From Bilabrum cf. latius (taxonomy: Eukaryota): 64,000 bases of DNA. Location: positions 682,001 through 746,000 of the forward strand of contig OZ237737.1 of assembly GCA_965178125.1 (NCBI GenBank). The letters run 5' to 3'. Below the pieces are notes generated by a model. That model ran no database searches and had not been told where the DNA came from. It was given only the letters and a program-made list of their open reading frames with translations. Made by a program: the position numbers and the translations under genes. Numbering within the stretch: position 1 is the stretch's first letter; every line of letters begins with the position of its first letter. Below, one piece after another: positions 1 to 64,000 of this stretch.

Positions 1-3000
1 CTGGAATGGGAGTAAGACGAAATCTTCCTGCCAGCCGGCTGCAAGCATTGGTAGAAATATTACACTTGTAGGCCAGAGAGAATGCTCGGGGCTTGCAGCT
101 GCAGTTTGGTGAGATGGGGCTCACTGCTACCCGAACTCTACTGTTCTCGTCGTCGACTGAACGGGACGAGTTCGTGGCATTATTTAGCCGTCTGGTCGGA
201 GCAAAGGCCATTGCACGGCCGCTATTAAAGCTTGGCAGCGCACTCGGGGGTGCCGGGCCGGCGAGTGCCTCGAAGTCACTCGCCTCTGCGGATAGCCATG
301 CCAAGAGCGTGCAAGGCCACAGCGGGAACCACCTCGTCGCCATAGAGAACCTGTACGGCTTCCAGTGCAACCGAGTCACGCAGCTGGACACATCCAGCTG
401 CATGCTGCGCATCCTCGAGCAGCCCGCCATGGACAGCACCAAGGCGAGCGTGCTGCAGGCCCACTCCCTCTCCCGCCTGGAGCGCTTCGACGTGCACTCG
501 GTGGACCCCTGCGCCCTCGGCCTGTGCTTCCAGGGCGACAGAGCGGCCTCTAGCGCCCCTGCACAGCTGGTCATATCCTTCCGTTCGCGTGACGAGCGCG
601 ATGATTTCGTTGAGGCGCTCAAGCCCGTGGTGGACCGCTCGGGTGCCACCGGGGAGGACGGGGGTCCTCTGCTGCCCAACTACACGTGGAGGGTGCCGCT
701 GCCCGTCAGGAAGTGGTTCCGGTTTCTCGTGCATCGCAAGGCAGGGGGTAGCATGGGATCCGGGAAGGAATTCATCCTCATGTGCAGCGTGCGGCACCGG
801 ACGCTCAATTTTATCGACTCGGCCGAGCTGGCTGCGCTGGGGGGCGTGGAGGCCCATTTCATCCCGGACACGGTCAAGATCGCACAAACTATCAGCACCC
901 TGCCCGGAGCCATGCAAGTGGAGCTGGACCCGGCCAACCCTAGGCGAATTCGATTCTCGACAGACACGCCGGGCACGCCTGTAGGCGACCGGCGGTACAT
1001 TGACATTGAGCTGCCCACTGCTGGGGAGAGGCAGCGGCTCTCTGCAGTCCTAAACTCGATTGCAGCCGCGCCCACGGCAAGCAAGGACAATCAACCGTCG
1101 TCTGCCGCCAGGCTAGCCGCCCGAGACCCGGCCCCTCCAGTTGTGCCCGCCCTGTGGCATGCGGACTGGCCGCACGACGAGGTGGGCGTGTATGTGGGCA
1201 CGTACAACGTGTCGGGGTAGCCACCTCCTGGCCCGCGAGAGCTGCAGAAATGGATCCCATTCCCGTTCAACAAGGCCCACGACCTCTACGTCCTGGGCTT
1301 TTAGGAGATCGGATCGGCTGCCAACCGCGAGAAGTGGGGCAAGGCGCTTTTCGAGTTCTTGAATACGAACCCGAGATCCGCTGGGCTGGACCCAATGCAG
1401 ACAGAGCGGAACCGGTCGGCCACGGTGGCTGCATCAGCACACCCACTGTACGGCGACCTGTCCGGAGGTGGATCGTCTGGCGCTGGGGCAGCAGAGTAGT
1501 CCGAGTCGGCGCCAGAGCCGATCCACACCGGCGGGTATCTTCAGGTTGCCCACGCCTTTATGTGGGAGATATCTCTATGGGTGTTTGTGAGGGCACCGCA
1601 CGCCGGTGACATCTCCAACGTGCAGACGCACTACGAGCCCACGGGCCTTGCGCTCCTGAAGAACGTGACGGGGCAGCAGCTAGGCAACAAGGGTGGGCTG
1701 GGCTGCTCGCTGACGTGGAGGAGCACCCCACTGGCCTTCGTAAACTGTCATCTTGCTGCGAGACCAGAGCGCATTCCGGAGCGCGAGTCTGACTTTCGCT
1801 AGATTGTTCGGAACTTGCAGCTCAACAGCAGCATGCAGGGGTACGGGCTGGATTTTATCCATGGGCACGAGCACGTGTTTTTCTTTGGCGACATGAATTA
1901 TCGCGTGGATCTCCCATTTGCCACGGCGGTGGACTGCCACAAGCGGGGCGACTACCCGATGCTGGCCAGCAACGACCAGCTAGCCAAGCAGAAGCAGCTG
2001 AGGCGCGTACTGGATGGATTCGAGGAAGGTCAGCTTGACTTTCCACCGACGTACAGATGGCAGCGGCAATCAGACGAGTTCTCTAACAAGCGGGCGCAAG
2101 CCCCCTCCTACACGGATCGAATCACGCACAAGAGCGCGCCTGGTGTGGCTTGGTGCATCGACCGCGAGTCGTACAGAAGCGCGCACCAGCTGTATGGGTC
2201 GGACCACAGGGCCGTCTCCGCCGAGTATCAGGTGCAGCTGAGGCAGTACTACACGATCCCCGCACCCCCTCCAGTGCACTCGCTCATCCCTAGGCCGAGC
2301 TTCTTCGCGCAGTTCGACCACAACGTGTGCCCCCCTCCCGTGATCCTGCTGCAGGACCTCAGGGTGGTGGGCTACCAGGCAGCCATGGCTCCTCACGCAA
2401 TGTTCCTCTCGGTGCTCTCGCCCGTGCTTGAGGACAACCCGTACGTGACGCCGGCCATCGCAGCCGAGGGGATCTCAGACTTTCAGCGCAAGCAGCTGAA
2501 CGACCTGCTCGACACCATGCGCAAGGAGGCCAAGGCAAGGAAGGCTGCGCTCAAGGCCGCCGCCAAGAAGAGCAAGAAGGAGGCAAAGAAGGCTGGGAAG
2601 TAGCCCACCCCTAGCCTAGACTCGAGCGCGGACCCTGCTGGTGCCAGTGTGGGTGGCTCTGGCACCGACATCCGCCGCTCGCAGTCGAGCCGGCTGGCCA
2701 GCATGCAGTCGCACCCCCTCATGGTGACCTCCATGGACAGCGCGAGGGATTCCCCCCTCGACGAGCACGACAGCGACGATGAGGTGCTGCTCGAGGACGC
2801 AGAGGGTGGTGCGGGGGCACGCAAAGTGGACATCGACACGTCGAGCCTCTCGCTGGCCTGGCTCACGGAGCAGAGCGCGGGGGCGAGCGATGGTGGCGGG
2901 ATCGACCCGCACCGGCAGGGGCTGCTGGCCCTTAGCTGCGAGTACCCGATCACACCCTACGAGACGGCCCTGCCGCCCATGCGGCTGCATCTGTGGGACC

Positions 3001-6000
3001 CTCGCATCCTGCGGTCTATGCACCTGAACGTGGTCGCACAGCAGCCGCCCAAGTCCGACCTGGGTGATGCCAAGTCCAGGGTCGTGGGTCAGGCCACTCT
3101 TCCCCTGGCGCCACTCTGCGATGCAGCTGCCGATGCCGCCCTCGAGGGCCTGCAGCGGTCCATGGAGGAAGAGGACGAGGAGGGCGTGGAACTCAGCCCA
3201 GCCGAAGCTGCGGGTGCCAACCCCGCGGCCGCGCTCCAGAAAATGCAGCGGTCTCCCAGGGCAAGATCGAAGGGTTCCAGGGCCCGCCGCAGGTCCGAGA
3301 GGCACCTGAACACGTACAAGCGGCAGTTTGACAAGCATGGTATCCCCTGGGCCTTCCAGCACGAGGCTCTCCCCTTCTGTGTGGACCTGTTTCTCGAGGG
3401 GTAGCCCGTGGCGAAGCTCCACGGAAAATACTGCATGCGCGCTGCCACGGATGAGGAGGTAGCGGGGCGCCCGGGGGCGGCCTTGATCGCGTCTCACTGG
3501 AACTTTGACGACAGCATCGATGCCTTGCGACAGGCTGTGGACGGCGTGGACGGAGGAGAGCCCTCCAAGGCTGGCAAGGCTGTCGGGGCGGGAGGTGAGG
3601 AGGACTTCGATGCGTGGGAAAGCAAGGGAAGCGACGTTGAGATGGAGGACTTCGAGGCAGACGCGGCTGGGCTTCGCTACAGGCACCGGCCAGACCACCC
3701 CGCGTACGCCGGTAGCGACGACAGGGAACTGGGCGGCAGGCCCAGCTCTGACCTCGAGGGCGGCATCCCTTCGCCGCTGCGGGAGAACGGCGAAGAGCGG
3801 GCAGCGTGGGCCGCTGGGATGCGCAAGAGCGAGAGCGGCGAGTACGAGGTGAGCGAAGACAGCGTCCTGGAGATCATCGCCAAGAAGGCGGACGAGGAGG
3901 TCCAGGTGCAAGGGGGCGGCGACCTAACCGGAGGGGCTTCCTCGAGCGATGGACCTCCCATCGGCTCGCAGGTAGGCGTGCAGGAGAGGCTAGCGGCGAG
4001 GAGAAGGTCCTCGGCTCCTCCCGGCAGTGTCGTGGAGCAGTTCGCCAATAGGCACATGGCGCAGGCAGGGGAGGCCATCGCGGAGGCCGACCAGGAGACG
4101 GACTCGGAGGACGAGGAAGGGGGCAGAGAGGGAGGGGGCAGCGCTGGCACTCAGGCTGCGCCGGCACCCACCCGGAAACCAGCACCTTCTCCACCTCCGC
4201 CGCCAAAGCGACAGCCGGTGCTGCCCCCGCCGCCAGCATCGCCCCCGGCTGCAATTGCGCAGCAGGCCAAGCGCAACAGGCGCAGGCGCAGCACCATCAA
4301 CCTGCTCCAGACCTCCATGCTGCCGCACGAAATGCTCCCCGGCCCACCGTCAGAGCCCCCGCCGAGTGGAGGCCCCACCCTACCGCCGCCTCCGGTGCCC
4401 CAGCTGGCCATTGGGTCAGAGGCCAAGCCGGGTGCGTCAGCATCTTCTTCGGTCCGAGCCGATACGACTCCAGCAGCCGGCCAGTCACAGGGCACCGTGC
4501 CCCCGCCTCCCCCCGCAGGCGCATCGCAATAGCAGACCTCCAGCCCAGCCTTGGTTCAGGCAGGTGGAACGGCGGGGAGTGCAAGCGATGCAGCGGCAGC
4601 AGCAGTACCCGTCATGCCGGCAGCCCGCGCACCTCGCTCTGCCCTCCCGAGCCTGGCATCCCTGCGCAAGCAGACCCAGGCTGCGGCAGCCGCAGAGGCG
4701 ACGCAGCAATCCAGGCGAGTGTCGGCATTCGCGGTGTCGGCCATCAAGATCGTCCAGCCTTAGAAGCCCAAGCTCGGTGCGGCTGCGAGCCTGGCTCCCG
4801 CTGGCAACGGGTGGGGCGGAAGCACCAGCAGCGGTGGGTCCACGCTCACGCACCTAAACGGCGCCGCGGGGATGCTGCGGAACCAGGGCAGGGTGACCGG
4901 CGCGCTCCGAGCGAATGCAGGCCAGTCCAGGCCACCCCCTCCCCCTCCGCCGGTGGACACGTCCGGCTCCAGCGTGGCGTCGAGCACCAGCACGCAGCGG
5001 TTCGCACTGCGGCCCAAGCTCAGGGGCTTCGAGTCCAGCGATGACCGGGCCTCGCTGGGAGGAGGCACGCCGACTGGGATGGGCGGGGCAGGGGGCATGC
5101 AAGGGGCCAGGGCTGGCGTTGCGTCCAGCGGTGCGGGGACCGGAGGAGGAGCCGGCTCCACCGGTGGGGAAGGCATCGCCAAGGGGTCTCGGTCCCGGGT
5201 GCAGGCAGGGGCCGTGATCGGATCGTCGGCGGTGGTCAAAACGGCAGCGAAGCCGCTGGCCCCCGGCAGCAAGGGCATCGCTGCTGCCAGGGCGCCTGTT
5301 GTCTCGGCGCCCGCTGGCATGGGTGTCCGCACGCAGGCCGCAGACGGGCTGCAGGCAGGTGGCAGCGAGTCGCCGCTTGGGGGCAAAGGCAAAGGTAAAG
5401 GCAAGAGCAAGGGAAAGGGAAAGGGGAAAGGAAAGGCAATAAGGGAGGGCAAGGGTGCAGACGGAGGCAAGACACCCACGGAAACCGGCCCCAAGACGAC
5501 CAAGAAGCAGCCCATGCCCAAGGAAACCGGCCCCAAGACGACCAAGAAGCAGCCCATGCCCAAGGAAACCGGCCCCAAGACGACCAAGAAGCAGCCCATG
5601 CCCAAGGAAACCGGCCCCTAGACGACCAAGAAGCAGCCCATGCCCAAGGAAACCGGCCCCAAGACGACCAAGAAGCAGCCCATGCCGAAGGAAAAGCAGC
5701 CCGCTCCTGGGGCTGCTGGCCTGGCGTCCGGTGAAAGCAAGGGTGTGGGAACTTCCCTGCAAACAAAGCCGAAGCTCAAGCCGAAGCTTAAGGCGGCTGC
5801 CGGCGCAGGAACTCCCAAGCCCGCGGCAGGTGACCGGCAGCCTCCCCCTCCGCCCCCAGCTGGTGCCGGTGGTGCAGGTAGTGGCGTAAGCTCCGGGCAA
5901 TCGTAGAAGCCAGCAGCTCCGAGGGGGCTAGCAGGCTCCGCAGCGGCAGCGCCTGCACCTGCGTCTGGCTCGCAGTCCGGCCGCGTCGTGATTGTGTCTT

Positions 6001-6035
6001 CGAGCAAGCCCAAGGCCCCGCGCCCTGGCAAATGA
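1..6035 (+). CDS. Inositol polyphosphate 5-phosphatase with long Pro/Ala/Lys-rich C-terminus (5' end probably outside window); TAG read as Gln
   Basis: Same-frame ORFs 93..1220, 1560..1802, 1815..2603, 2649..3404, 3408..4532, 4551..4763, 4872..5621 and 5640..5906 are separated only by TAG. Motifs: GTYNV, DLYVLGF(TAG)EIG, GNKGG, FVNCHLAA, FFGDMNYR, DQL, PTY, PSYTDRI, SDHRAV. First TGA at 6033-6035. Confidence 0.9.
5481..5690 (+). repeat. Coding minisatellite: 5 copies of a 42-bp unit (ETGPKTTKKQPMPK)
   Basis: Near-identical units start at 5481, 5523, 5565, 5607 and 5649. Copy 4 has TAG in place of AAG at 5619-5621. Confidence 0.95.
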
Positions 6036-6223
6036 TTATTCGGTGTTGGGTCATGCTTATTAAGTGCAGTTCCGTGTCGATTGATTGCAGCACCAATCCG
6101 TCCATATTGCGGTTCATCATGTTGTGGCGTGCAGATATGGTTCCAGTTCAAGATCGCTCACTGCCTTGCAAGAACATCTGGCTTGTTGCGATGATCAAAG
6201 GGCGACTTTCCATTCGGAATGGG

Positions 6224-9178
6224 ATGAACTGCATTGCCAGTGGTCGTAGGATACGCTCGCTGACACGAGCTTGCAGCACATACGTCTCGACACAGCAGCT
6301 GATTGAGCAATTTCGAACGAGCGGCCACGTTGCCGCATAGCTGGCCCCAGTCGGCGATGGGGCATCCCGATTTGACAAAATTGCACAGGAGCTAGACTGC
6401 AGGGTGTATTTCCCCGCCAGTGAGTCGCAGATCGCCCAGGAGCTGGTGCCCACTCTGACTGCCGGCTCGCCGCCAAGGACCGCTGGCGAGCTGGAAGCAG
6501 CTTTGCGTGACGTTTACTGCGGCACATTTGCGGCCGAATTCTCGCATCTCGCTAGCCGAAGCGAGCGATGCTATTGGGTTGACGTCATGGAGAAGCACTT
6601 GCCGGCAGCCAGGGCTGTGGGCGCTGGTCGTTCAGCCCGGCATGCCTTTCGGCAGATGGCTCAAGCCGAGGAATTCGAGAGGTTCCTGGGTGTTAAACTG
6701 CCATCGTTGAAGAGGTACAGCGGAGAAGGCGCCGAATCTATGCATCCCTTGCTCTCGGCCGTGTTTGACGGGCTGGCGCAGCGCGGCTCCCGGCAGGTTG
6801 TGGTGGGCATGCCTCACCGTGGCCGCCTCGCTTTCCTCGCGGGTGTCATGCAGTACCCGGTGTAGAAACTCTTCCACAAGCTGCTGGGCATGCCTGACAT
6901 CCCAGACGGTGTTCCTGGGATCGACGATGTCAGCTCGCACGTCGCGCACTCGCGCCCCGCCGTCCCCATCGGCCCCACTGGACCTGCGCTGGAGGGCCTC
7001 ATGCCAGCGGACGTCGAGTCGCAGGAGGGCACTGCCGTGACTCTGCTTCACAACCCCAGCCACCTGGAGGCCGTGAACCCCGTGGCCATGGGCAAGACTA
7101 GAGCCAAGCGGGTCTCGGGGGAGGACCCAGAGGCGAGCTGCGTGCTGGTACACGGCGACGGGGCGTTCAGCGGACAGGGGGTCGTGGGAGAGTCGCTAGC
7201 AATGGCCCAGCTGCCTGGCTTTGGCATCGGGGGGACCGTGCACGTGGTAGTGAACAACTTGCTCGCCTTCACCGCAGGGGCGCACGAGGGCCGATCCACT
7301 CCTCACGCGACCGATGCGGCCAAGGGCTACGGCATCCCTGTGGTGCACGTGAATGCCGAGGACGTCGAAGGGGTCTTTCTGGCGGCGCAAAGTGCGGTCG
7401 AGTACCGACGACGCTTCGGAAACGATGTGGTGATCAACCTGGTGGGCTTCCGCAGGCACGGGCACAACGAGGTAGACGAGCCCAGGTTCACCAACCCCGC
7501 GCTGTACAAGGGTGTGGACAGCCAGGAGAGTTTCCCGACGAGGTATGGGGAGCAGCTGGTTAAGGACAACGTCATAACCAAGGAGGACCAGGAAGGGATC
7601 AGGAATCGCGCGAGGGCGCACCTGGAGAAGCAGTTCGAGGCGGCCAAGCAGCTGGCGGCAGGGGAGGGGTCCTTCTCCATGCAGGCTCCCGGAATGAAGC
7701 ACAGGGAGAATCCAGGGGACGTGGTGAAAGATGGGAGCGCATACGCAGGCAAATGGGAGGCCATGCGGCCGGCCACTCCCGAGGACGTGTCGGGGAGGCA
7801 GTCCACTGGCGTCGCGCCGGCCAGGCTGGCAGAGTTCCTTCGGGCCTCGATCAACCTGCCCTCTGACCAAGGCTTGGAGTTGCACGGGCGGCTCCAGCGA
7901 ACCTTCGTGAAGGCACGGGCTGCGATGTGCGAGACGATCGAGAGCGATTCGAATGCAGAGGTGATCGACTGGGCCTCGGCCGAGGCCATGGCATTCGGGG
8001 CGGCGCTCGCCGACAGCTGCAGGGTCCGGCTGTGCGGCCAGGACGCGCAGCGAGGCACCTTCTCGCACAGGCACGCCGCCATGGTCTGCCAGAACAGCGA
8101 GAAGCGGATCGTGCCCCTGAATTCTATCGCTGGCGCGCCAACGGTCCTGGACAGGCGCGACCGCCCTGCTACTCTCGGCCTCGAGGTGGTGAGCAGCCAC
8201 CTGTCGGAGTTCGCCGTGATGGGGTTCGAGTACGGGCACTCCCTGGAGTCGCCCCAGCAGCTGTCTCTGTGGGAGGCCCAGTTTGGAGACTTCATGAACG
8301 GCGCTCAGATTGCAATCGACGCGTTCGTGGCGAGCGGAGAGACCAAGTGGTTGCGGTCGACTGGCCTGGTGTTGCTGCTGCCGCACGGCTTCGACGGTGC
8401 AGGACCAGAGCACTCATCTTGCCGCGTGGAGAGGTTCCTGCAAATGGTCAATTCGCAAGAATTAGCGGGGGAGACGGCCCCGTGCCTGTAGGCAGCCAGC
8501 GGGCTTCCAGCGGACAAGTCGATTGGGGAGGCCGTGAACATGCGTGTTGCCGCGCCCACCACGCCGGCCAACTACTTCCACCTTCTCAGGAGGCAGACAG
8601 CGGGGCACTTCCGGAAGCCGCTCGTGGTGGTGGGCCCCAAGACCCTGCTGCGCCACAAGGCGTGCGTCAGCTCCCTATCGCACATGGCCGAGGGCACGGC
8701 CTTCGAGCCGGTGCTCGTGTCAGCTGCCGCCGACGCACCACTGAGTGCCCCTGAGGATATGCATGAGGCTACCAGCAAGGGCGCCAAGCGGGTGATCATC
8801 TGCTCGGGCAAGATAGCCGTTGAGCTTGAGGCCAAGCGCGCCGAGCTTGCGGCATCTGCCCCCGACTCGGAGGCCGCCTCAACTGCGATCGTGAGGGTAG
8901 AGGAGCTGGCACCTTGGCCCAAGGAGGCCCTTGGGGGTGCCCTCGAGGCGCTGTCAGCGGGCGAGGAGATCAAGAGCGTACGATTCGTACAAGAGGAGCC
9001 GGCCAACGCCGGCACGTGGTAGTGGGCCAAGGCACATTGCGAACGAGCGGTGCGTGAGGCGACAGGGTGCGAGCTGGAATACGTGGGTCGCCCAGCCCTC
9101 GCAGCCCCGGCTGTGGGTGTGTCCCACCTGCACAAGGCCTAGGTGGAGCGGCTGTTTCATTTCGCATTCCAGGAGTGA
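6224..9178 (+). CDS. 2-oxoglutarate/2-oxoadipate dehydrogenase E1 component (DHTKD1-like), mitochondrial
   Basis: Motifs KRYSGEGAES, GMPHRGRL, NPSHLEAVNP, HGDGAF, GHNEVDEP, GQDAQRGTFSHRHA, WEAQFGDF, LPHGFDGAGPEHSS, QEEPANAG. In-frame TAG at 6338, 6863, 8489, 9020, 9140; TGA at 9176-9178. The start may instead be ATG 6191. Confidence 0.92.
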
Positions 9179-9390
9179 GGGGTGGAGCTGATTCTGGTTC
9201 TGGATCGCGTGGGTGAGGTTGGGAGGTAGACTCATGCCTTATGAGGCTGGGACTGACGCCGGCCGTGAAGTGTCGGCGTGGATTTCACTGCGGATCCCTG
9301 TGCGAGTGCAACGCGCCGTGAAAGAGTGATTTGCAACAAAACGGAGAATACTAGGTTCAAACATTATTCAGGATAGGCGCCCCCGGATCT

Positions 9391-12300
9391 TCAAACACCT
9401 GCAGCGGTGCGGCGGCGCTTGCTCGCCGGCGTCCCATTGCGGCTTCCGGCCTCCCTAGCCCCGATCTGCGATGAGCCCTTGCGCGAACCAGGCTTTCCGC
9501 TTCCTGCCCTTGACTCAGTGTCGACAGAGTCACTTGCCTCGTTCGGTGGCGTTTTCGTGGGCGTGTCGGGGTCCAGTTCCGGTTTGGGATTCGACGCAGA
9601 CACTTGCCTGGACCGCTTTGAGCCGAGCGCCTCTGTCGCATCGCTAGCCTAGCTTGCCACCTCTACAGCTGTAGACGCACTGCTGCTGCTACTGCTAGCC
9701 CCGCCTGCGACGTTGCCGTTGTCAGCGAAAGGTGCCACCAGCGCAGATGCCGGCGCCATCCCCATCACCCTGGCAGTGTGTGCCCGCGCCAGCTCCTGAG
9801 TGGCGGGGTCCTCGAGCCGCATCGATGCGCCCGCCTTAGTTGTGCCTCCAGGGAGCCCGTCCACGCTGACGTGAGCGGCGCGCTGCAGACCCGCGGACCT
9901 GAGCGCCGCCTCCACCACGGTGCTGATCTGGGCCTTGGCAGAGTAGGCCCCGCGGAGCCCGTCCACGATGGGCACCCCGATACCAAACTGAGGCAGGGCA
10001 TCCGGCCGGCGCAGGTCATCCACTGCCTCCTTCACGAACGACTCGAGTAGGTCATCCTGCCCCCCTCCAGCGCCGTACACGCCTCCCCCCGAGCCCATCA
10101 TCGCACCGGACTGAGCCTGGGAGCGGGACTGCGCCCTGTCTCGCAGCAGGGCCTGCACGCACAGCCACCTTACCTCGCACCTGTCGCGCTCGGCCTCGCT
10201 GGCAAACAGAGGCGCCTGCTCGCTGTCGGCAGCACTGCTCGCTGCAGCCTGCGATGCCGCCGATTTGGCGCCCCGCTTGCCCTTGGGTCGGCCCGGGGAG
10301 CGCTTGGGCGCGGGGGCCGCCGCACCGGCGCCCGCGGCAGGCTCCAGCTGAGCGATCCTTCGCTGCATCCGGTCCAACAGAAGGGTCATCTGGTCCATCA
10401 CGCGCTGGTTTCCTTGCAAAATCACCGCTAGCCGCTACGCGTTATCCTCTGCGGCAGCCATGCCCGCATCAGACCGGAGCTTGGCAGTCCTCAGCTGGTC
10501 CACAGCCTCGAGGGCAGCAGCGGCCCGCTTCCTCTGCTCGCTGAGCCGAGCATACTGGGCGAGCTCGGCCTGCCTCTGCTGCTCGATGAGCGTGAGCTTG
10601 CTCCTGAGCTCGTTGCATTCCCGGTTCTTGGCCGTGTAGTTGGTGTGTGCCGTGTCGTACTGCGCCTTGGCCCGCTGCACCTGCTCCTGGGAAGCGGCCA
10701 GCTTGGTCTCCACCGCAACCACCTTGCCCTTCTCCTCTTGCAGGAGGGTGGACAGCTCGGTCACCCTCGCGGCCTTGGTCTTGGCGGACTGCTGCGCCTT
10801 GCTCAGCTCCCGATTCACGGCATCTTGCTGCTGTGCGCGTGCCTGCATGCCAGGCATCCTCATGTTGAGGGCGTCCAGCTGCTGCTGCAAGCGGCGGTTC
10901 CTGGCATGCAGCTGGTCCACGATGCGCTCGTGCTCGCTCCTGGCGATCACGCCGCCCAAGAACTTCCCGCTGCTGCTCGATGCGGACGACGAGGCGGCCT
11001 ATGGAGCGGCACCGGACGAGCCCCCCGAGCTCGATTTCTCAAACCAGGGCTGCAGACCAGACCCACCGGAGCCTGCCCCTGAGCTGGCGGCGGGACCCGG
11101 GGCCGGCCGTAACGCCCCCGACGAGGCTGACGCGCCGTGTGCCCCTGTCCCAGACCTAGAGTCGTCCCCGGTGTCGTCACTGAGGTCCACCACGCGCCCC
11201 TCACCAGCGGCACCTCCCAAGTCACCACCACCACCGAGATACCCGGCAGCTAGCCCACGCCCGTTCTCCAGGGCCTCCAGAGGTTCCGTCTGCTCGAACT
11301 TCTTGTCCACGATGTCCTGGGCCACTTGCTCCAGCACTGTCACGGCGCCGCCACCGCTGGACCGGCGGCGGCCCCCGGTGCTGACTCGGCTCACGATGGT
11401 GCTGTTGCCCTGCGATGGCGAGCGAAATAAAGCGTTTCCAGCATGGCATAGTGACGCTGCGACGAGATTCGATGAGCGGATCAAACACTGCACGGCTGGC
11501 TGGGAACGCATCAAGCCGAGCTACTCACGCTGTCCTTCCGTGTGACCACCACCTCGATCGAGCTGGCTAGCTGCAGCATCATGCGGACGTCCTTCGCGTC
11601 CGCCGCGATGTGCAGGGCCGTGCGCCTCTGCTCCATCTCGGACTGGTTCGGCTTGGCCCCGTGGTGCAGCAGATGGGCGACTGCCTCGTACTTGCGCGTG
11701 CTGGCGGCGTGCAGCAAGGCGGTGCGCTGGGCATCGGGAGTGGCGGGGATCTGCGGGCGTGGGAGGAGCGGATGGGAGAGCGCTGCAGTGCAATACACAC
11801 GAGACGGGATACATTCACACAGGATCACCCCGCGCTGGGACCAAAATCTGGGTGCTCACAGTTTCGTAGTCGTTGATGTCGACCCCATTGCGGATGGCCG
11901 ACTCGATGAACGTGGCATGCACGCCGGGTCTGTGGTCTTTCGGGGCACGCGCGCACATCTCATGCAGCGCATTTCTGGACGCGGCCAGCTTCTGCCCACC
12001 GTACTACACGGTGCAGGGACACATGAGGCAGGCATTCGCACCCTCCTGCATCAGCTCGATGGCCAGCTCCACCTGGCCCATCGACGCGGTGTGGAACAGG
12101 AGCGTGCAGCCGTGCTGCGAAACGGAGGAGCAAGCGCAGCATGCGTGGATCCGGTTATTACAAGCTGGCATTGTGGGAACGCTGGAGCGTGGTGGGACAG
12201 GTTTTGGGAGCTTGCTCGGGCAGGCCACGGTTTGCTGCCTCACATCATCTCTGGCATCAATGTCGATCCCAGCGTTCCGCAGCATACCGCACACACGGCG

Positions 12301-12956: not shown

Positions 12957-13097
12957 TTAGATGATTCTATCGCAACAACTGCCTCTGCTGCCAACACAAG
13001 CCAGTTTTGAAATTTTATTTGTAGCGTTTGGAATTGCCTGAGGGAGAGATAAACCAGAAGCTCCCCAAGAAGCACAAAGTGTAGCCTACTTGAACTC

Positions 13098-25917: not shown

Positions 25918-26047
25918 GGCTAACCTGTGTGATTGCCACTCAAGTCTAGCCTGGCGTCCAAAAAACGGCTACGAAGCTTTGTAGCGTGTACAAACAGAGT
26001 TTTGCTCCGGCCTGTTTAGAATGTTCCCAAATTCATCAAACGGCAAG

Positions 26048-52783: not shown

Positions 52784-53986
52784 TCACTTGCCGGCTCCTC
52801 CCTTGGCAGCCCCATCGGCCTCTTTGCTCTCGTCTGCCCCTGCATCTTTCTTCTTCTTGCCCTCCTCCTCGTCCAGTTCATCCTTGAGCTTCTTCACCGC
52901 GCGCCGCTCGAGGGCAGCATCCGAGTAGCGTAGCTTGTTCGTGGTCAGCTCGTGCAGTGCAAGCACGCTCGCCACCAGGCCGCTGACGTACATGGCCATG
53001 TGCATGTCGTTTGTCTGCTGCATGACGGCCTTGCGGGTGGCCTCGACCGACATGTTGGGGAGCAGTCCGACGATCTCTTGGATGTGGCCCAGGATCTCCT
53101 GGTTCGCCTGCAGTTCGCCCGAATCCACGTCGCGCAGGTACGCTGCAATGGTCTCCAGTCGCTCCTGCAGCCCTCTCAGTCCGGCAATCTTGCTGCGAAC
53201 CTTCGCCCCAACAGTCGAGACGGAAGGGTCGTTGATGTCGCGCAGCAGGTGCTCCACGCCGACCTCCTCCGACTCGTACGCGCCAACTTCGGACGGGAGG
53301 TGTTCAAAAACTCGCTCTGTCTCTTTCCCAGCGGCTGAGACCTCTACACTTGTGTATGCGGACGTCGGCAAGCCCTCGTTGTCGGGCTTGACATTGACGA
53401 TCAGAAACACAGGGTTCGGACAATACCTTCGAATCATCCTATCAATTGCCAAATCTGCGGGTTTTACATTCGGGCCGGTAGAGTACCACCCAATTACTTT
53501 CTCCTTGCCTGCGATGAATCTAAATGGTCCGTCGGCACGGCAACGAGAATGCAAGCATCGCTCAAACACAAAGCAGACCAAGTGCGGCGTCGCAGGACAT
53601 GAGAGCATGCAAGAATTCAGCAAATAGAAGACTTGACAATTTCTGTGATGACACGCCCGCACAGATGCAACAAACCGGGATGAATGCTCACTAGTTACCT
53701 TCTTGAACATCCTCGCCATCACTTCAAGATAGTTGTGATCAATGAACCAAACCCTAGGATCCTTCTTATCCTCTTCAAACGGAACAGCAAATGAATTAGC
53801 CACGTCCACCTGGCCTTTTGATGTGCTCCCAAGCAAAACGCCCACCACACGTCGTGATCCTGGCTCCTTGGCATCCTTCAAAATTCGGTTGTAATGGTCG
53901 GTCACGTTCAGCAGTACCAATGGATGGCAAATTACACCTTTGAACCCATGGGGGGTAGCTGCTTTTGCCTCGCTTGCCGACGACAT
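52784..53986 (-). CDS. PSMD7: 26S proteasome lid subunit RPN8/PSMD7 (MPN-)
   Basis: HPLVLLNVTDHYNR, RVVGVLLG, NSFAVPFEED, WFIDHNYL, GWYSTGP, EEVGVEHLLRDI. Removing intron 53509-53691 gives KKVTSKEKVIGWY. Ends TGA. Confidence 0.95.
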   Translation of the reverse strand: MSSASEAKAATPHGFKGVICHPLVLLNVTDHYNRILKDAKEPGSRRVVGVLLGSTSKGQVDVANSFAVPFEEDKKDPRVWFIDHNYLEVMARMFKKVTSEHSSRFVASVRACHHRNCQVFYLLNSCMLSCPATPHLVCFVFERCLHSRCRADGPFRFIAGKEKVIGWYSTGPNVKPADLAIDRMIRRYCPNPVFLIVNVKPDNEGLPTSAYTSVEVSAAGKETERVFEHLPSEVGAYESEEVGVEHLLRDINDPSVSTVGAKVRSKIAGLRGLQERLETIAAYLRDVDSGELQANQEILGHIQEIVGLLPNMSVEATRKAVMQQTNDMHMAMYVSGLVASVLALHELTTNKLRYSDAALERRAVKKLKDELDEEEGKKKKDAGADESKEADGAAKGGAGK

Positions 53987-54101: not shown

Positions 54102-55319
54102 ATGCTAATTGGAATTTGGGCAATTTTCCTTGCCCAGTTGTTTATTACTAGCTTTGCACACCGTTCATCGAAGAGGGGGGTAGAAAAATATGCTAATTCG
54201 TCGTGGAAGCCACAGTCTTGGATCCATGATATTCTGCCAGAGCTTGGCGATGCGAGCTATTTTGATGTAACGATGCCTGGGACACACGATGCCGCCACGT
54301 ATAAACTGTATGAAGTGTTTGCTCCTGGATCCGACGAGGCCCTAGAAGACATCGTGAAACTCGCAAAGGATCTTGGCATCGATGTGTATCCAGTCATCGA
54401 ATCATGGGCCACGGCACAGAATGTAACCCTGTTCGACCAGCTGTCGCAAGGAATTCGGTTTATTGATCTGCGAGCTTGCAATAACGGCACCAGTGGCTGG
54501 CGCACTCACCACATGATAATGGGCAATCCCATTCATGACTTGCTAGAGCAAGTCAGGTCGTATCTTGAACTGCCAGACGTGCATGGCGAGGTCGTAACAC
54601 TCCACGTGTCGCATTTCTACGGAACTAACACAAACGACACGCGCCGTAGGGAGCTGGCAGCCGACATTCACTCGGTTTTGGGAAAGTGGCTGGTTCACAG
54701 GCCGGCGACCCTGCCCGCCCCTCCTTCGCCTAGCACGAACCCCCTCGCTCTGCCACTGCGGCAACTTCTAGCCGGAGGCAGCAAGGTCTTGGTCTCGTTT
54801 GAGGACCAAATCGTTGGCACAGACCCTGAGTTCCCTGGCCTGTGGCCGGACACGGACACGCTCGCCGGCTCGTACTGCAACATGGACAAGCTGGGTGACA
54901 TGCTGGCCTGCAATGAGGCAAAGGCGCTGCAGCTGCCCCTCGGGGCAGATGGAAAGATCTCTGAGATGTGGTACACACTCACAGAGCAGACCGATGACAT
55001 CATCGCTGGGTTGCTTGAGCCTGGCTCGCACCCGACCTCTCTTCACGAGCTGTGCGCGCCCGCCGACGCTCGCTTCCTGTCGTGGGCCCACGAGCTGAGC
55101 AACTCGACGCTGGGGAACGCGCTGCTAGTTGACTGGTTTTAGACCACGGGAGTGGTAGAGTGGGCGGTCAACGACGCGCTCCGGCTGTGCGTGGACGACA
55201 TGGCGTGGCGGGCCAGAGACGCGGGCGGGGCGGGGCAGGACTGCAGGTCCTGGGCCTTGGCAGGCAACTGTACGGCCGCCAATTCCAAGAGATGCCCAAG
55301 GTCTTGCCAGGTGTGCTAA
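54102..55319 (+). CDS. Secreted PI-PLC X-domain protein with C-terminal ShKT-like domain
   Basis: Signal peptide; MPGTHDAATY, QL..GIRFIDLR, GEVVTL. After TAG 55140: CVD...DCRSWALAGNC...CPRSCQVC, then TAA at 55317-55319. Confidence 0.82.
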
Positions 55320-55605: not shown

Positions 55606-58419
55606 TTAGAGACCCCCGCCGGGCTTGTTCGGACCGGCTGCAGCAATCGGGATCACAGTTACGGGGCGGCGCGACCCGGAGGGGCACAAAAAGTACTGGC
55701 GCTAGGTGAGCGGGCCAGACGCGCCCGCTACTGCCAGCTGCCGTGCAAGCCGTTCCTAGTCCTGTCGGCTTTGTGCAATGCCACTCGCCCCGCTGCGTTT
55801 CTTGGAACCAGCAGTTTTGTGACCGCTGGCACACGCCACATTGGAACACCCAGGTTGGCCACACCCTCTACGCAGCTAGGCAGAGTACAGTCGCACAAGG
55901 TGTCGGCTGAGAGCACCGACAGACGCGCTCGCGTCCGGCTCCTGCATGACATCATCGGACACTGGGTCTACGATCCGGTCAAAGCAGTCGAGGCACAGCT
56001 CCCAGTCATGCCGGGACGTACCCTCGTCGTCTGTATCGCTGTCACTGCCCGCACCAGACTCTGCGCGTCGCCTGCTTGAGCCATCCACGAAATGGGCACA
56101 CGCCTGGTTCCGGCACCGTCGGCGCGCCGAAGCAACCCCAGCGCCGCCGCCCGAACCTTGGGTAGCTGCGCCTTGTGTCCCTGCCTGCCCCCCGAGACGA
56201 TGCCGCATCGCTGCTGCACGAGCCGTGGTGCCGATAGAGGTTCCGCACATGGCGCAAGCAGTGGCTCCTGGTGCGTTCTTATAGGTGCAGTTGCTGCACG
56301 CCTTCTCTGTGTCTTTGGCCCGGATTGGTGCAGGCGGGGGCGCTGCAGCAGCACCTGGCGCGGCCAAGGCGCCCGTGCCTGCCACAATTCGGCACCTCTC
56401 AGACAGCGCAAAGTGCTCCGGGTAGTCCTTGAGGCGATACCTTCGGCTGCATCCAGGGCATATCTCGGTCCGGTTCCCGCACCTGGCTTCGTGCCCAGAC
56501 AGCTCATGGCGCGCATCCACTGGGTCGCTTGGTGGCGTGCCCATCTCCACGATGTCTTTGCAGAATCGACACTGCTGCAGGCGCATGGGGCAATCGCCCC
56601 TCTTGGTGTTCCTGTGCTGGCGCAGGCTGACATAATTCTTTACCGAAGCTCCGCACTCGCAACGGATAGGAGAATGCCACGCTGCGTTATGGCGTCTACG
56701 ACCGGCTTCGTCATCCCTGACTTGTCGCCCACACAACTTGCAGTGCCCGTGCAGCCTTGCTTCCTCCGAGCCAGCCCGCAGCAGCTCACCGCACTCTTTG
56801 CACTTCCGCAAGTGTCGCCGGCAGTAGGCTTCATGCATGACCATCCTGTGCTTTGGCACAGATCCCCCACAGTTGCTGCATACGCTACTGCCTGCATCCA
56901 CTGCACCAGCCGCACTGCCTCCGTCGCCTCCCACCCTCAGGCCGTGCCTGGCAGCTTTATCGAGCGAAACACGGATCCGCATTCGAACAGTGCGTTGGAC
57001 TTTCTGCTCCGAAAGCTCTTCTGATCCATATCCCGAACTTGCATCGGCACGCACCGATACAAAATGCCTCTGGCCAGCGGTCCCAAGCAGGTGTGTCGGC
57101 GCCGGAGGCAAAGCCATGGGCAGTCTAGACAGGGAGCCGCCATGCAAACCATCACGCTCTGCATCCTTACTTGGCATGCAAGCGTCGAACTCTACTGAAG
57201 CTAGCTGCATTGCATCGATGCTAGCTTGCTCGTGCGAAAGCAGAGAGGGTCTGGGGCATGCCTCCCCGCACGAGACGAACAGACTGGGGCAAGGCCGACT
57301 GCCGACTCGGGGCGATGATGACGCACCTGACCCACCGGCTGCAGAGGACATCGCTGGCATTGAGGACTCGCCCCGCATAACCTCTGCCTCGACTCGGAAT
57401 CGGGGTGCTCCGCCCTCTGACCAACCGACTGGCAGCTACAAGCCACTCGAAGGCGTTGAGGACAGCTTGCCAGCGGCGGCTTGGCTTGCTCGCCCTGCTT
57501 GTGCACGGCCAGACGGGCCATGCATGCTTCCGGCCGTAGCCGAGGGATTTCCTAGCCATGCCGGTGGATAAAATGCGAATCGGCTGTATGCATTCATGGG
57601 TGCCTCGAATTCAGTCCACCCTAGGTCTTGCCGGTGGCCGGCCCCGGCAGCAGCACCTCTGGATCTTGCTGGCTGCTCACCGGAGCTGCTCTGCTCTGCT
57701 GTAGGGCGCAGCCCTGGGGACACGCATACGGCTAATTTGGCTGTGGGCTATCTGCCATCACAGCTCCCTGCATTCATGGCTGACTTGATGTCGATGCTCA
57801 CATCTGCGTCCAGCAACGATGCCCCGGTGGCTTCCACTCCAGGCCCGCCTGTCGCAGCCGCGCTCAATGACGCGCTTCCGGCGGGCTCTGTACGCGCTAC
57901 TCGGACATGCTCTATAAGTACTTCAAATACTTCGCCTCCGTGCCTTATTTTGATGATTGATCCTCTTGTCGCAGTTGCAACTGCCTTGCCTAGCACCTGC
58001 TCCAGGCAGGCACTAGCGTCCGGAATATCGCTGAAGTCAGCCGTAAGCGGCCTCAGCACCAGCAAAGACGCCTTTTGCAGACTAATACTCCGAATTACTG
58101 CAGTACTGGAGCAAGGAATGGCCTGTGTCACGCCCTCCGCAGGCAAGGATGCTTGGTGGGGGCTCGTGCGCGGCGGCAACGATATGGAATCCATCACACG
58201 CTCGGGCAGTTCAACGGTACCGGGAGCTGCAGAGAAATCCAATATGCCACAGAATGATGAGCTCGTCCCTTTGGACAGGGAAATTCGAATGTGCTTGCTA
58301 TTGGACGACAACACTGGTTGCAGCGCTGCTGGGGGCAGCCGAACCTTGTCTCCCTGCTGTTCAAACCATTCCGCGCTGCGCAGTGGTACACATTTGAGCT
58401 CAAATCGAAACTGTTGCAT
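55606..58419 (-). CDS. UFD1-like N-terminal domain + TRAF/XAF1-type zinc fingers + RanBP2-type ZnF + AZUL-like domain
   Basis: GDKVRLPPAAL...CGILDFSA..G.VELP; CSNC...MHEAYCRR; CRFC..HEARCGNRTEIC; ACSNCTYKN..C..CG; LYSA(TAG)LRRGCGQPGCSNVAC. TAA at 55606. Confidence 0.8.
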
Positions 58420-58579: not shown

Positions 58580-59353
58580 ATGAGGCGGTTCGGTGGTTTG
58601 TATTCAAGAGTTCTACGCTCAACAGCGCCTTGGGCAGGCCGCCAAATGTCGCGGATCTAGCAAAGGTTTGCGTCTGCTAAAAGCACCGGGGGGCAAAGTC
58701 CTCTGCAGTGGTACATGAAAATGCTCGAAACAAATCCCCTCCCAACCAAGGTGGTGACTTCTTGCGTAATTGCTTTCGGGGGCAACATGATTTCGCAGCT
58801 CGGAATAGAGGGCAAGTCTGTCGACAAGATTGAATGGCAGAGAACCGCAAGGTTCATGCTAATCATCGGCGTAGGTCTTGGTGGTTGGCTCCACTACTGG
58901 TACGGTTGGCTGGGTGGAGCGATCCCGGGGTCGGGGGCAGTGCAAGTTGCCAAGAGAGTCCTTGTCGACCAGTTTGTGTCAGCGCCGCCGATCCTAGCCG
59001 GGGTATTTTTGGCAGAAGGGGCCCTCAAGGGTGAACTTCACAAGGTGCCCGAATAGCTCAAGGCTGGATACCTCGATGTGATGCTTACGAACTACAAAGT
59101 TTGGCCGGCCGCAATGGCGGTGAACTTTGCCCTTGTGCCTCCGTAGTTCTAGGTTCTCTTCGCGAATGCCGTTGGATTGGCATGGAACGCATACCTTGGC
59201 TACATGACCAACGCTTCTGCAGGTGGTGATGGAAGCCAAGATGGTGTATCAGCTGCTGGCGGAGCCGAGGAGGGTGCTCCAGCGCAGTCCGTTTCGCCGC
59301 AGGCTCAGGCTAGCTTGGACGAGGGCAAGGACCAAAAGGAGGGGCGGCAATGA
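58580..59353 (+). CDS. Mpv17/PMP22 family membrane protein
   Basis: WY..ML..NPL.TK..TS, RTARF, HYWY.WL, RVLVDQ, NYKVWP....VNFALVPP(TAG)F(TAG)VLFANAVGLAWNAYL. TGA at 59351-59353. Confidence 0.9.
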
Positions 59354-59708: not shown

Positions 59709-62700
59709 ATGAACATTCACCACCTAAGCGTTCTTGATGATCAAAGGAATGAAGACGCCGTTGCTGCAGTGCTTGTGTCGTTTGAATGCTCTATCCGCAT
59801 CAACAAGCACGATGCGCAGCAGGGACTTGTATCTGTTCTTCCTGAGGGACTCATTGTTACAGTTCATAGAGAGAGAGCAACGGATGCCGCCGGGTCAGGG
59901 CAGGCGTTGCCTTCACCGGTGAAGTTTACAAGAGCGTCCATTCGTAGACGAATCCAGTCTGCATTGGCTGCTAGGGACAAACATGCAGCCGCGGTGCTCA
60001 CAATAGAGGAAGACAGCACATGTGCATGTTGTCTCCCTTTTTGCGGGGGCGATGATTTTGTTGTCAACACTGCTCAAATGCACGCCCAGTAGAAGCGCCT
60101 CGAAGCTCTGCACTCGTTGCTCCAACCAGAGCATGTACAAGCAATTGCTGCGAAGGCAAGCGCGGCAGTGCCAATTTGCGGGCCCCTCCAACATTTTGTC
60201 TTCCCCCGAGTGGAATGGCGGGACCACAGGTCTCATGTTGTCCTGGCTGCATGCAAGCCTGCCGCTCACATTGGAGCAAGCCCTGGGCAAGTCGATGCTG
60301 CGGTCGAGGAACACCTCGAGTGCATGCAGAGCGGGTCGGCAGTGCTGCCAGAGATCGCCAATCCGATCCATGGCAGCGGCATCGAGAGCCACGCCGCTGT
60401 GCGACTTGAGCTATCCCCTGCCGCACTGGTCCGCGCTGACCGAGGCTAGAAGGAGACAGGTCAATTGCGAGAGCAAAGCAACGAAGAAAGCGCTGAGCCA
60501 TCCACTGCACCTGCACAAGGTTTTGGGGCATTGCAATCGAAAGGGCGGCTGTCTGGCGCCTCGGCAAGCCGTGCGGTGGAGCCACTGGTAGCCGCTCTAT
60601 CAGAGTGGGGTGACGAATACAAAACCGCGCAATAGCCGTCCGAACCGGGAGCTGGACCTGGCGGGGGTCATGGCGGATCAAGCGGCTCAGATGATGCCGT
60701 GCTTGTTGAGCAGCACTGTGAGGGCTCACCTAGCCGCGGGCAGGGGCAGAGACCGACGGGGCTCGACCTGCGGCAGGTTGCATCGGGCGCAGCCTCCGCA
60801 AAGCAACTCCTGCTACTGGACTCCGATGGCCCCGGCTCGTAGCCTGCTGCATCCGGCGCGAATTATGCGGCTTCTTCCGGGTCTCGTTCTAATGGTCCTT
60901 TCGCGCATGAAGTTGTGTCGTGCACTTCAGAGATCATGCGTGTAGCAGCACGAGCCGGCGTGTCCGGGGCCTCCTCGCAGTAGCCACCTGGTACAGGTAG
61001 TGGCAGACAAGATGATGGTAGCCTCGCCAAGATCTAGGGCAGAATCAAGCAAATCTGGTTCGTAGCTCGAGAGCTCCTAGTGACGGAATGCTCCGGTGCC
61101 CTGGATGCTTGCACCACGGATGGCGTGCTCGAGGCATCGCTCACTGGCAGGGGGGGGCGCCCAGAAGCCCCAGCCTCACGTGGAACGCATGCCGCGGAAA
61201 GAGCAGAATCGAGCACTTCCACTGCAGATCCGCCGCATACGACTGGGTCAGACGGTGCTGCAGCAACCGCAGCTGCAGACGTGTCAAGTGCCGCCGCCGG
61301 GCTGCGAGAGCACCTGGTCAACGCAGGCGTCGCCTCATGGAGCCAAGATGCGCCGAGGTAGCTGCTGCGAGCCGTTCCAGTGCCTCAATGCAGCTAGGCA
61401 GTTCAGTGGTTCGGCAATAACTTGGGCCACATCGCAAAGGCCGTACTTGCGGCGAGCGAGGATGGCGCCGGCGGGCTGGCCTCGGTACAGGCTGATGCGG
61501 CCCTGGCAGACAGGTGGGTTCCGTTCCTTGCCGTGTGCAGCACGATTTGTACGGCACTGAAGGAGCGCTTTATTGCTCAGGTGGCAGCAGATGACCAGCG
61601 GAATGGCATCTAGGTGGCGTCCCTCCTGCCGTACTGCCGCAGGTATGCCCGGTCGCAAGCCACGAGGCGGCGCTGGCGGGATGCTGCTGATGTGTAGTGG
61701 AAGGCCTGGGAGTCGGCGTGCGGAACGGCTGCTTCCACTGGTATCGTCTCGCTAGATGCACTGAAGAGGCCCCTTGTCCCAGAGGCGGAGCCGGGCCAAG
61801 CCAGGGCGGCGTCAGGTGCAGATTCTCAGTACGCACAAGCCGGAGCATTCCTTGTGCTGAAACCGCGTCCAGAGGCCCGATCTCTCGACAACCTGGAGTC
61901 TGCTCTAGTGAGGCCCGTCCAACGAGCTTGCCGATACCCGCTGCTGGCACATGCGCTTGCGTCAGCCGCAGACAAGGCCCTGGCTTGCGTGGAAGAGTTT
62001 GCCGGTGGCGCGGGCGGGGAACGGGGCAAGGCAGACGGGGAGGCAGGAGTGCCCAGCATGGGTGACACGGAGAGAATTGCGGGAGCCTTGAGTGCCCTTG
62101 CAGTGGCAGCCAGGTCGCTGGAATCTAGTGCAGCAAGTTTTGCAGCTGCCGTGAACCAGTGCGCCTCGGAAGCAGAGATGGACCGGGCCCTGCAGCACCT
62201 TCATGCGCAGCTTCTTCGAGGCAACGCGCTTGCACCAGGCGCCGCTCTGCCCCCGCATGACGTGGTCGCACCTGGCCGCAAGCTGGGGTGGTGTATGCCG
62301 GATGCAGCCCAGAGTGGCCCAAGCACAGCTGCAACGACCAAAGGCGGCACCATCGGCTGGGTGGTGATGTGGGACAGGCACGATCACCCACTCGCGATTC
62401 GGCCGGTCGATAGTGCACCGCCATTGATCCGAGGCGCTGGCGCAGACGAGGCCGGCTCAAGCGCCAGCCCTGGGGACCCAGCAATAGCGACGTTAGTGCT
62501 CGCTTGGGCATCGGGTGGTGCAGATGCAGCAGCAGCCCAGTCCAAACAGAGTGGTAGTAGTGTGGGCGATGGTGCTCCACGGAAAGCAAAACCGGCCAGA
62601 AGACTCGTCAAACCTGGGGCAACACGTGCTTCCAAGATGCTGAAGCGAAAGCGTGCCATCGAAGCGACCATGATGGTGAAGCCAAAAGTAGAGAAGGGCG

Positions 62701-63503
62701 AAGGCTAGGGCAAAGCAAGCTTCAGACGAGGCGGCTCCAGTGGCGCTTCATCGGAGGGCACCCCAGCCGGAGGGGGTTGCGCGGCTGGCATGCCAAGGGG
62801 TGGCTCGGCTGGCCCGGGGGGAGAGTCCGGAGAGGCTGCTGCCGACTGGGAATGGGACAGCAGCGGGCCAACCCCTGCAATTCTTGCTCTCCATGGGATG
62901 CACGTGCTTCTACCGGACCAGCTTTTGCTCTCAACAGGCATTGCGCAGGCTTCCAGTGGCAGTCCCATCATGATCGCTGGGGACGCTGTTGTGCCTGCAG
63001 ACGGTGCTTGCAGTGCGCTCGGGCTCGCCGCGAGGGTGGATCTGGGCCGGTGCCACGCGCCCAGGGAGTTGTACAGGATATCAGATGCGAGCGATGCGTT
63101 TGCGTTCGATTTGTTCCATTCGTGGTCCGCTGTCGGCGGCGCAAGAGGCGATGGATCCACACTTGCGGCAGTGGAACGCATCTCTTTCGTGTTTGCTGGG
63201 AGGGTTGCTGCGATCGAAGCACGGCGAAGGCTGAATGATGTCATTGGTAAGCTCAAGGAGGGGCAAAACGCGTTGTTGCTCCAAAGCTCGGAGCAAGCTG
63301 CCGATGAGGATAGGTGCGCGGAGGGTGTTGGGCAATAGCACATCGACGCTCCAGGTGAGATGCCAGACCTGTCAGCCGCCCCTCGAGAAACTGGCCGGCG
63401 GCTAACTATGACGAGACGATCATCAGCAGCCGTACGCCGGAGATAGGATGCGTTGGCTGCGCTTGTCGGTAAGCTCAAAGCCAGTCGAACAGACCAGGGC
63501 TGA
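59709..63503 (+). CDS. Divergent RhoGEF (DH-domain) protein
   Basis: One frame with ~13 TAGs. DH-like ARELLVTE, WFGNNL, PYC, LESALVRPVQRACRYPLL, AVN. TGA at 63501-63503; start uncertain. Confidence 0.7.
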
Positions 63504-63687: not shown

Positions 63688-64000
63688 TCATGTCCCGATT
63701 GTCTTGGGCATCTTCATGTCTCCTTGCAATTTACCATCTATTGTTCGAACAGGCGAGTGCGCGCCGGCCAGTTTCTTGGTCTCTACGAATTCGATCTTGC
63801 CACGTGATGGAGTCCCCTCCGCCGCACTGTGTGTCGACGATTTGGTGCTAGGACTATGAGCCAATCCGCTGCCAAGCGGTCCCAAACACAATGCATCAGT
63901 TTCACAAGCACGTACGGGGGATGCCATGCCGCAACTTATTCGATCAACTACGTTTTTGAGGCCAGAACAATCCGAAACTCGAGAGCGCGCGAAAACAGCT
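63688..64000 (-). CDS. Possible 3' end of a gene extending beyond the window
   Basis: Frame is open from the window edge to TGA at 63688. No recognisable motif. Confidence 0.25.
   Translation of the reverse strand, partial: AVFARSRVSDCSGLKNVVDRISCGMASPVRACETDALCLGPLGSGLAHSPSTKSSTHSAAEGTPSRGKIEFVETKKLAGAHSPVRTIDGKLQGDMKMPKTIGT

Follow-up and report, generated by a model that had tools for sequence, protein, structure and literature searches.

We analysed a 64,000-nucleotide stretch of contig OZ237737.1 (positions 682,001 to 746,000; henceforth the window, to whose first letter all coordinates refer), the genes of which carry TAG codons in frame. In these genes UAG almost certainly specifies glutamine (Gln) while UAA and UGA remain stops, as judged from alignment columns, from the exchange of TAG with CAA and CAG in a relative and from spliced contigs, and as a preliminary description of the window, made from its letters alone, had proposed. 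We consider it highly probable that the window is nuclear DNA from a bicosoecid-type stramenopile lineage in which UAG has been reassigned to Gln, with translation still terminating at UGA, in the main, and at UAA.

The window has a GC content of 60.8% and is densely packed with eukaryotic genes, for which we built 22 models by hand from open frames, Pfam matches and splice joints (24 segments with 17,772 codons, not counting a few small exons; several start positions are approximate). Five canonical intron joints and the presence of kinesin, proteasome and dynein light-chain genes give it a nuclear eukaryotic character. The models contain 104 in-frame TAGs spread over 18 of the 22 genes, the genes for MAM33, an NTF2-domain protein, Rpn8 and a protein at 51100-52674 having none, next to 550 CAG and 154 CAA codons in all coding segments. 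Eighteen genes end in TGA, four in TAA and none in TAG. The preliminary description had arrived at about 100 in-frame TAGs, at 19 TAG-bearing genes out of 22 and at the very same gene ends; our recount bears out the total, the ends and the broad pattern, while the number of TAG-bearing genes comes to 18 in our own models. It had also placed TAGs within conserved domains, and indeed they lie inside Pfam domains or PDB/homologue alignments of the inositol 5-phosphatase, DHTKD1, uL15m, Roadblock/LC7 and kinesin proteins, and likewise of the kinase, PP2C, DAO and Mpv17 domains.

The absence of internal TAA and TGA from the genes, another of its claims, holds in our models but is partly circular, since the models are cut at these triplets; a frame scan of the window served as a model-independent control. 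Under the standard code the scan finds 14 frames of at least 400 codons, the longest of 1,003 codons. Once TAG is read as sense, their number rises to 30, and the longest reach 2,512, 2,244, 2,011, 1,789 and 1,286 codons. Reading TAA alone as sense yields 15, lengthens no frame and leaves the maximum at 1,003, and reading TGA as sense brings up many medium frames, all of at most 1,090 codons. An ordinary table 6 code, with both UAA and UAG as Gln and TAA escaping notice through its rarity in a GC-rich genome, would fit the low use of TAA-type codons (18 TTA against 167 TTG), the mere four TAA ends, a number that also weighs against our own reading, and the cutting of the models at TAA. As a Gln codon, however, TAA would be expected in frame about 29 times at the window's pooled NAA/NAG ratio (0.27), and about 11 times at the lowest ratio (TTA/TTG), and it was seen 0 times. 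Moreover, the TAA that ends the gene for the mitoribosomal protein uL15m sits a few codons from the TGA end of the same gene in a metagenomic relative (contig L001, see below), with more stops 13 and 31 codons downstream. We therefore regard table 6 as extremely improbable and conclude that UAA and UGA are stops and not sense codons, the number of TAA ends being small.

The TAGs could also be artefacts of sequencing error or of pseudogenes, or could be returned to CAG by U-to-C editing of the mRNA. All or part of the stretch is contained in 15 sequencing runs from nine studies, one of which may be its source; eight runs contain at least half of it, and none of the 15 is recorded as RNA. Four of them (X5, X6, X8 and X10) were aligned to 5901-25900; X10 is one of six runs listed with a share of at most 0.10, and the only one of these six that was used. 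The X5 contigs, which are unspliced, cover 5901-14284 as three pieces, all without a difference. X6 and X8 belong to two other studies; their contigs pass over five canonical introns and are for this reason taken as spliced. In record 24 of X8, 13084-13303 is connected directly to 13391-14109; this record shows 0 differences and includes all five TAGs of the uL15m gene (13203, 13458, 13506, 13596 and 13611) together with its TAA end, so that the retention of TAGs in mRNA, which the preliminary description had named as a check, is borne out there. Record 15 of X6, in which the ankyrin/coiled-coil gene is spliced, matches 6178-11408 with 0 differences and covers eight TAGs, and the DHTKD1 gene is free of differences in the X5 and X6 contigs alike. 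On the other side, the RNA status of X6 and X8 is a tool's guess, with X6 flagged as 'probably DNA', and the spliced call rests on the intron joints; the contigs are consensus sequences from which minor variants are dropped, so that partial editing would be invisible. Nevertheless, the TAGs persist unchanged in the spliced contigs, and three additional studies show the same TAGs in DNA contigs and in spliced ones, which speaks against sequencing error or editing; their occurrence in essential housekeeping genes and the TAGs of the 73%-identical relative, one of which stands at the same codon, point the same way. An artefact has next to no probability, and we conclude that UAG occurs in mature mRNA, as represented by consensus contigs.

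To assign an amino acid to UAG, searches with uL15m and against the PDB were run with X at the TAG positions. In exon 2 of uL15m, the column of TAG 13458 holds Gln in 31 of 42 homologues and that of TAG 13506 in 38 of 43, and the third and fourth TAG columns do so in 17 of 45 and 6 of 31. For the inositol 5-phosphatase, a full-domain PDB query missed the region of the key TAGs, which a shorter query aligned weakly (E 0.02-0.3), with Gln facing TAG 1302 in all five alignments shown and TAG 1218 in four of the five. The PDB search with Mpv17 gave no match. We scored eight TAG columns over 47 uL15m and 258 DHTKD1 homologues, omitting DHTKD1 residue 764 (fewer than half of the rows filled) and two fragmentary database proteins, P0001 and P0235. 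Gln obtained log-odds of +10.1 and the next residue, Thr, -2.8; eight out of eight control codons gave their standard residue. This is the Gln enrichment at TAG columns for which the preliminary description had suggested looking. The mean Gln fraction per column was 0.32 for TAG, as compared to 0.26 for CAG, 0.29 for CAA, 0.06 for GAG and 0.04 for AAG.

A relative with the same code offers a second view of these sites. Of the 31 loci returned by a metagenome scan, the comparison used L001, the sole close relative, the remaining 30 having only 29-50% identity. L001 carries the ankyrin (minus strand), uL15m (plus) and syntaxin-like (plus) genes in the order of the window, and its uL15m is 73% identical to that of the window in nucleotides and 86% in protein. 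At the four exon-2 TAGs of the window's uL15m gene, L001 has CAA, CAA, TAG and CAG, in this order. It has seven in-frame TAGs of its own, three of them in ankyrin-gene exons shared with the window. The seven exons aligned yield 12 codon pairs in which TAG stands on at least one side: one TAG/TAG pair and four in which TAG faces CAA or CAG, so that 4 of the 11 non-identical pairs involve a Gln codon, against a Gln background of 4%. On this comparison, the UAG code is common to a clade comprising the window organism and L001. The contig of L001 begins with a head-to-tail repeat of about 39 nucleotides (1-145), opposite an intron of the window's ankyrin gene.

The same clade probably includes the organisms behind run X10, the contigs of which belong to a relative (seven long pieces at about 90-95% identity), and behind database protein P0235. 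P0235 and P0334, from two assemblies, are DHTKD1 pieces 76-77% identical to the window's protein, and both end mid-protein at residue 300, where we infer another TAG. The database entry for the uL15m of L001 (P0001) begins downstream of its TAG, and another entry, P0051, is a C-terminal piece of the window's own protein.

Several observations weigh against Gln. It is the commonest residue in only three of the eight scored TAG columns, the others being headed by Asp, Arg, Ser, Glu and Met; CAG columns are equally mixed, with Gln on top in 7 of 26, and mixed TAG columns are for that reason the ordinary behaviour of Gln sites. Two PP2C TAG columns face Glu/Asp and Ser/Asp in five PDB alignments, and the column of TAG 17276 in the LC7 gene holds Arg or Lys in all three PDB alignments shown. 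In L001, two TAGs face GAG (Glu) in the window, and five TAG pairs involve neither Gln nor Glu, three of these five lying in a targeting exon of 39% identity. Finally, a tandem repeat in the phosphatase tail (5490-5690) has TAG in one copy (5619) and AAG in the others; going by the other copies, TAG 5619 is a young TAG derived from a Lys codon. UAG might accordingly be taken for Glu, as in some ciliates, for Lys or for an ambiguous codon, given that Glu heads one DHTKD1 column as well as PP2C alignments and is faced by two TAGs of L001, and that the repeat holds its single AAG-to-TAG change. Both residues, however, fall outside the five best of the column score, and Gln occupies the three TAG columns of highest conservation, where the relative has CAA or CAG, which makes another residue very improbable.

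TAG accounts for 12.9% of the Gln codons, and its distribution is that of a minor, non-preferred synonymous Gln codon, commoner in genes with a low GC content at third codon positions (GC3). In genes with a GC3 of at least 0.7 the ratio of TAG to CAG is 41:365, and in those with lower GC3 58:175 (p 1e-6; 20 of the 24 segments). G precedes 35 of the 104 TAGs and 336 of the 550 CAGs, a difference possibly due to GC3 or to the avoidance of splice-like words. Four of 100 TAGs and 14 of 696 CAA/CAG codons lie at most 20 codons from a gene end, and TAG thus shows no depletion at the 3' end. This bears on a dual meaning of UAG as sense and termination, which our models could have hidden in that they read through every TAG and would miss a terminal one. 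Three TAGs do lie 8-12 codons from an end, and those of the LC7 and JAB/MPN genes have no alignment across that point. Codons with dual meaning are nevertheless depleted close to gene ends (PMC11687900; this and all articles below are cited from their accessible parts), unlike TAG in the window, and the third TAG, 12 codons from the end of DHTKD1, marks a residue present in 249 of 258 homologues. From the 22 genes covered, we deem a dual meaning quite unlikely.

Regarding the organism, the named best matches of uL15m, Rpn8 and DHTKD1 are mostly from stramenopiles, cluster look-ups having put names to few of the top matches. We computed a quick DHTKD1 tree (70 rows) and a careful one (38 rows chosen from about 260, TAG sites masked, with a single named bicosoecid). 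In both, the window branches as the sister of a clade that unites Cafeteria roenbergensis with three other proteins (support 100/99), and no long branch is flagged in the careful tree. Cafeteria is placed in Bigyra, Opalozoa, Bicosoecida by the NCBI taxonomy. A position of the window with the oomycete clade was rejected (approximately unbiased test, p-AU 0.0005). Membership of the genus Cafeteria was likewise dismissed: the window falls outside the four-member clade holding C. roenbergensis, with which it shares only 44% identity in DHTKD1, and therefore represents another genus-level lineage. A transcriptome protein, P0341, is located in the next DHTKD1 clade. The eight neighbouring DHTKD1 homologues, that of Cafeteria included, are unbroken proteins of 946-1,064 residues with 26-48 Gln each; under the window's codon usage, the chance for each to lack TAG is 0.001-0.03, which suggests a standard code in their organisms, with the proviso that only unbroken proteins could enter the list.

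Thus, the window probably comes from a bicosoecid-type stramenopile, placed by one gene, in keeping with the 'Cafeteria-like stramenopile' of the preliminary description. The points against this placement are that the single gene has an end branch of 0.89 and 44% identity to Cafeteria, that the Rpn8 tree, the set for which lacked a Cafeteria sequence, leaves the window on a long branch without a named neighbour, and that Cafeteria is not among the matches listed for Rpn8 (120) and uL15m (48). It is accordingly possible, if rather unlikely, that the code is real but belongs to an organism outside the bicosoecids, with DHTKD1 misleading us through long-branch effects or gene transfer, or that the case has already been published in literature beyond our coverage, which omits most subscription journals and supplements. 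The stramenopile best matches of three proteins and the lack of a flagged long branch speak against the former, and the latter is countered by our full-text literature search, which found no stramenopile case.

The genes are described here from left to right; each ends in TGA unless TAA is stated. An inositol polyphosphate 5-phosphatase with a long low-complexity tail (3-6035, plus strand; Pfam PF22669) has an uncertain start and 11 in-frame TAGs, 10 of which lie downstream of the Met used for counting. It is followed by a DHTKD1-type 2-oxoacid dehydrogenase E1 (6224-9178, plus; Pfam E1_dh, Transket_pyr and OxoGdeHyase_C; five TAGs) and by the multi-exon ankyrin/coiled-coil gene (9391-12666, minus; Pfam Ank; four TAGs in two counted segments). 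One spliced X6 contig covers both of these convergent genes (6178-12666), suggesting overlapping 3' ends though not proving a single transcript, and the coiled-coil exon (9391-11814) has a sub-threshold match to PF25660, a filamentous double-stranded RNA virus capsid family (25.5 bits versus 27), which is probably due to chance. The uL15m gene (13098-14063, plus; TAA end) has an 87-nucleotide GT-AG intron at 13305-13391. Next come a syntaxin-like gene named by inspection without a Pfam match (14480-15697, plus; one TAG in exon 2; start approximate), the spliced gene for MAM33 (15924-16850, minus; Pfam; no TAG; start approximate) and a Roadblock/LC7 gene with two introns (17012-17600, plus; Pfam; TAGs at 17276 and 17562).

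The region 17700-19800 is AT-richer (45-52% GC) and lacks a long frame. At about 18240-18610 and 18950-19140, contigs of high depth and with many differences occur in several runs, which suggests a multicopy repeat or a decayed mobile element. Beyond it lie a coiled-coil-like gene (19830-20903, minus; three TAGs; TAA end), to which record 19 of X6 is identical, a small spliced gene (21180-21513, plus; one TAG; start approximate) with a GT-AG joint at 21214/21331 in both X6 and X8, and a kinesin motor gene of several exons (21688-25930, minus; Pfam Kinesin; four TAGs, three of them in exon 2). An NTF2-domain protein (26717-27079, plus; Pfam; no TAG downstream of the Met used) and an acidic low-complexity protein known by its frame only (27345-29237, minus; three TAGs) precede a large PPR protein (29806-36846, plus; Pfam; 10 TAGs downstream of the Met used), in which Pfam matches nothing in the roughly 2,000 residues preceding the C-terminal PPR repeats.

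In the right half, Pfam matches identify an FAD-dependent oxidoreductase (DAO; 36976-38652, minus; four TAGs), a JAB/MPN-domain protein (38780-44122, minus; 18 TAGs) and a gene at 44237-50941 (plus; 11 TAGs) in which a cNMP-binding domain, a Ser/Thr kinase and a PP2C phosphatase are fused in a single protein of 2,234 codons. A frame without assigned function (51100-52674, plus; no TAG) is followed by proteasome Rpn8 (52784-53986, minus; Pfam; no TAG), whose 183-nucleotide intron (53509-53691) is in frame and free of TAA and TGA, and so reads through as a false insertion. A Phospholipase-C-X-like protein (54102-55319, plus; one TAG; TAA end; no Pfam match) and a UFD1/zinc-finger-like protein (55606-58419, minus; five TAGs; TAA end) are both named by inspection. 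The last two genes encode an Mpv17/PMP22 protein (58580-59353, plus; Pfam; four TAGs) and a protein of 1,264 codons without assigned function (59709-63503, plus; frame; 13 TAGs). Within the window, ARAGORN found 0 tRNA genes and Rfam gave 0 matches.

The code table itself is already known; what is new, as far as checked, is the lineage and its stop usage. In agreement with the rarity asserted by the preliminary description, UAG-only reassignment to Gln is reported, in the accessible parts of the sources, from Iotanema spirale (PMC5304391) and from the ciliates Hartmannula sinica, Trochilia petrani and Protocruzia tuzeti (PMC11687900). Iotanema, a fornicate, resembles the window in having UAG as Gln, UAA and UGA as stops and a predicted tRNA-Gln with a CUA anticodon; by contrast, it is an anaerobe of an unrelated supergroup with UAA as its primary stop (PMC5304391), whereas UGA ends 18 of the 22 genes in the window. 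The three ciliates share the table 15 code and the spread of UAG like other Gln codons, and a suppressor tRNA was not found in them according to the accessible text (PMC11687900). However, ciliates are a known hot spot of code change, and the phyllopharyngeans Hartmannula and Trochilia have UAA fixed as their preferred stop and use UGA least of all, in 1.7-13.1% of genes (PMC11687900). UAG is uncoupled from UAA, as in the window, but given to other amino acids in the rhizarian exLh and three TARA metagenome-assembled genomes of phyllopharyngean ciliates (Leu) and in Scotinosphaera (Ser) (PMC11687900, PMC5304391, PMC10553269). Tetrahymena, hexamitins, ulvophytes and Amoeboaphelidium, with table 6 codes, share UAG as Gln and also read UAA as Gln, whereas UAA is absent in frame from the window and ends genes there. 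Cafeteria roenbergensis, the closest relative that bears a name and whose DHTKD1 belongs to the sister clade, likewise has intron-poor, GC-rich genes, at a GC content of about 70% as compared to 60.8%, and the accessible text on its genome mentions a non-standard code only for the mitochondrion (PMC6972860).

Our full-text literature search found no nuclear reassignment in stramenopiles, most subscription journals and supplements lying outside its scope. The word 'stramenopile' is absent from the accessible main texts of PMC11687900, PMC5304391 and PMC10553269, and five bicosoecid or stramenopile papers (PMC6723347, PMC11008856, PMC11412368, PMC6972860 and PMC4987115) report mitochondrial code changes or nothing in the parts accessible. 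A screen of several hundred marine transcriptomes, as cited in PMC5304391, saw no variant code outside ciliates. The case is therefore likely to be unreported, and the 'possibly undescribed' of the preliminary description stands within the reach of this search. On balance, we lean towards the first nuclear code change in stramenopiles: an independent, UAG-only reassignment to Gln in a GC-rich bicosoecid clade next to standard-code Cafeteria, with UAA as a minor stop.

Mechanistically, such a code would call for a tRNA-Gln with a CUA anticodon, which would pair with UAG and not with UAA; CUA is the only anticodon that reads UAG while ignoring UAA (PMC5304391). This putative tRNA would be one C-to-U step from tRNA-Gln(CUG), the simplest source being a duplicated copy of the latter, and it would be charged by glutaminyl-tRNA synthetase, for which the anticodon serves as an identity element (PMC5304391). 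The release factor eRF1 would presumably recognise G less well as the third base of a stop codon; in the first two cases known, the eRF1 changes T32G or L69A are expected to weaken the reading of this G (PMC5304391). The reassignment probably arose once Cafeteria had diverged, on the branch leading to the window organism and L001.

Only a handful of lineages, mostly ciliates and protists that are uncultured or anaerobic, are known to give UAG and UAA different meanings in their nuclear code. Several public studies already contain DNA and spliced RNA of the present organism, and standard gene callers fragment the proteins of its lineage (P0001, P0051 and probably P0235), hiding them from protein databases and phylogenomics. 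The sequenced and apparently standard-code Cafeteria provides a close before/after pair for a comparison of eRF1, tRNA-Gln and glutaminyl-tRNA synthetase. UAA is the dominant stop in Iotanema, in the rhizarian and in the phyllopharyngeans (PMC5304391, PMC11687900), and its dominance has been argued to fix UAA as a stop in ciliates (PMC11687900). In the window, UAA ends only 4 of 22 genes, yet has not been reassigned, which tests the idea that UAA survives only as the main stop. If our interpretation is correct, UAA would be retainable as a stop without dominance, against the explanation offered for ciliates, and the CUA anticodon together with the third-base reading of eRF1 would be indicated as the cause of the uncoupling of UAG from UAA.

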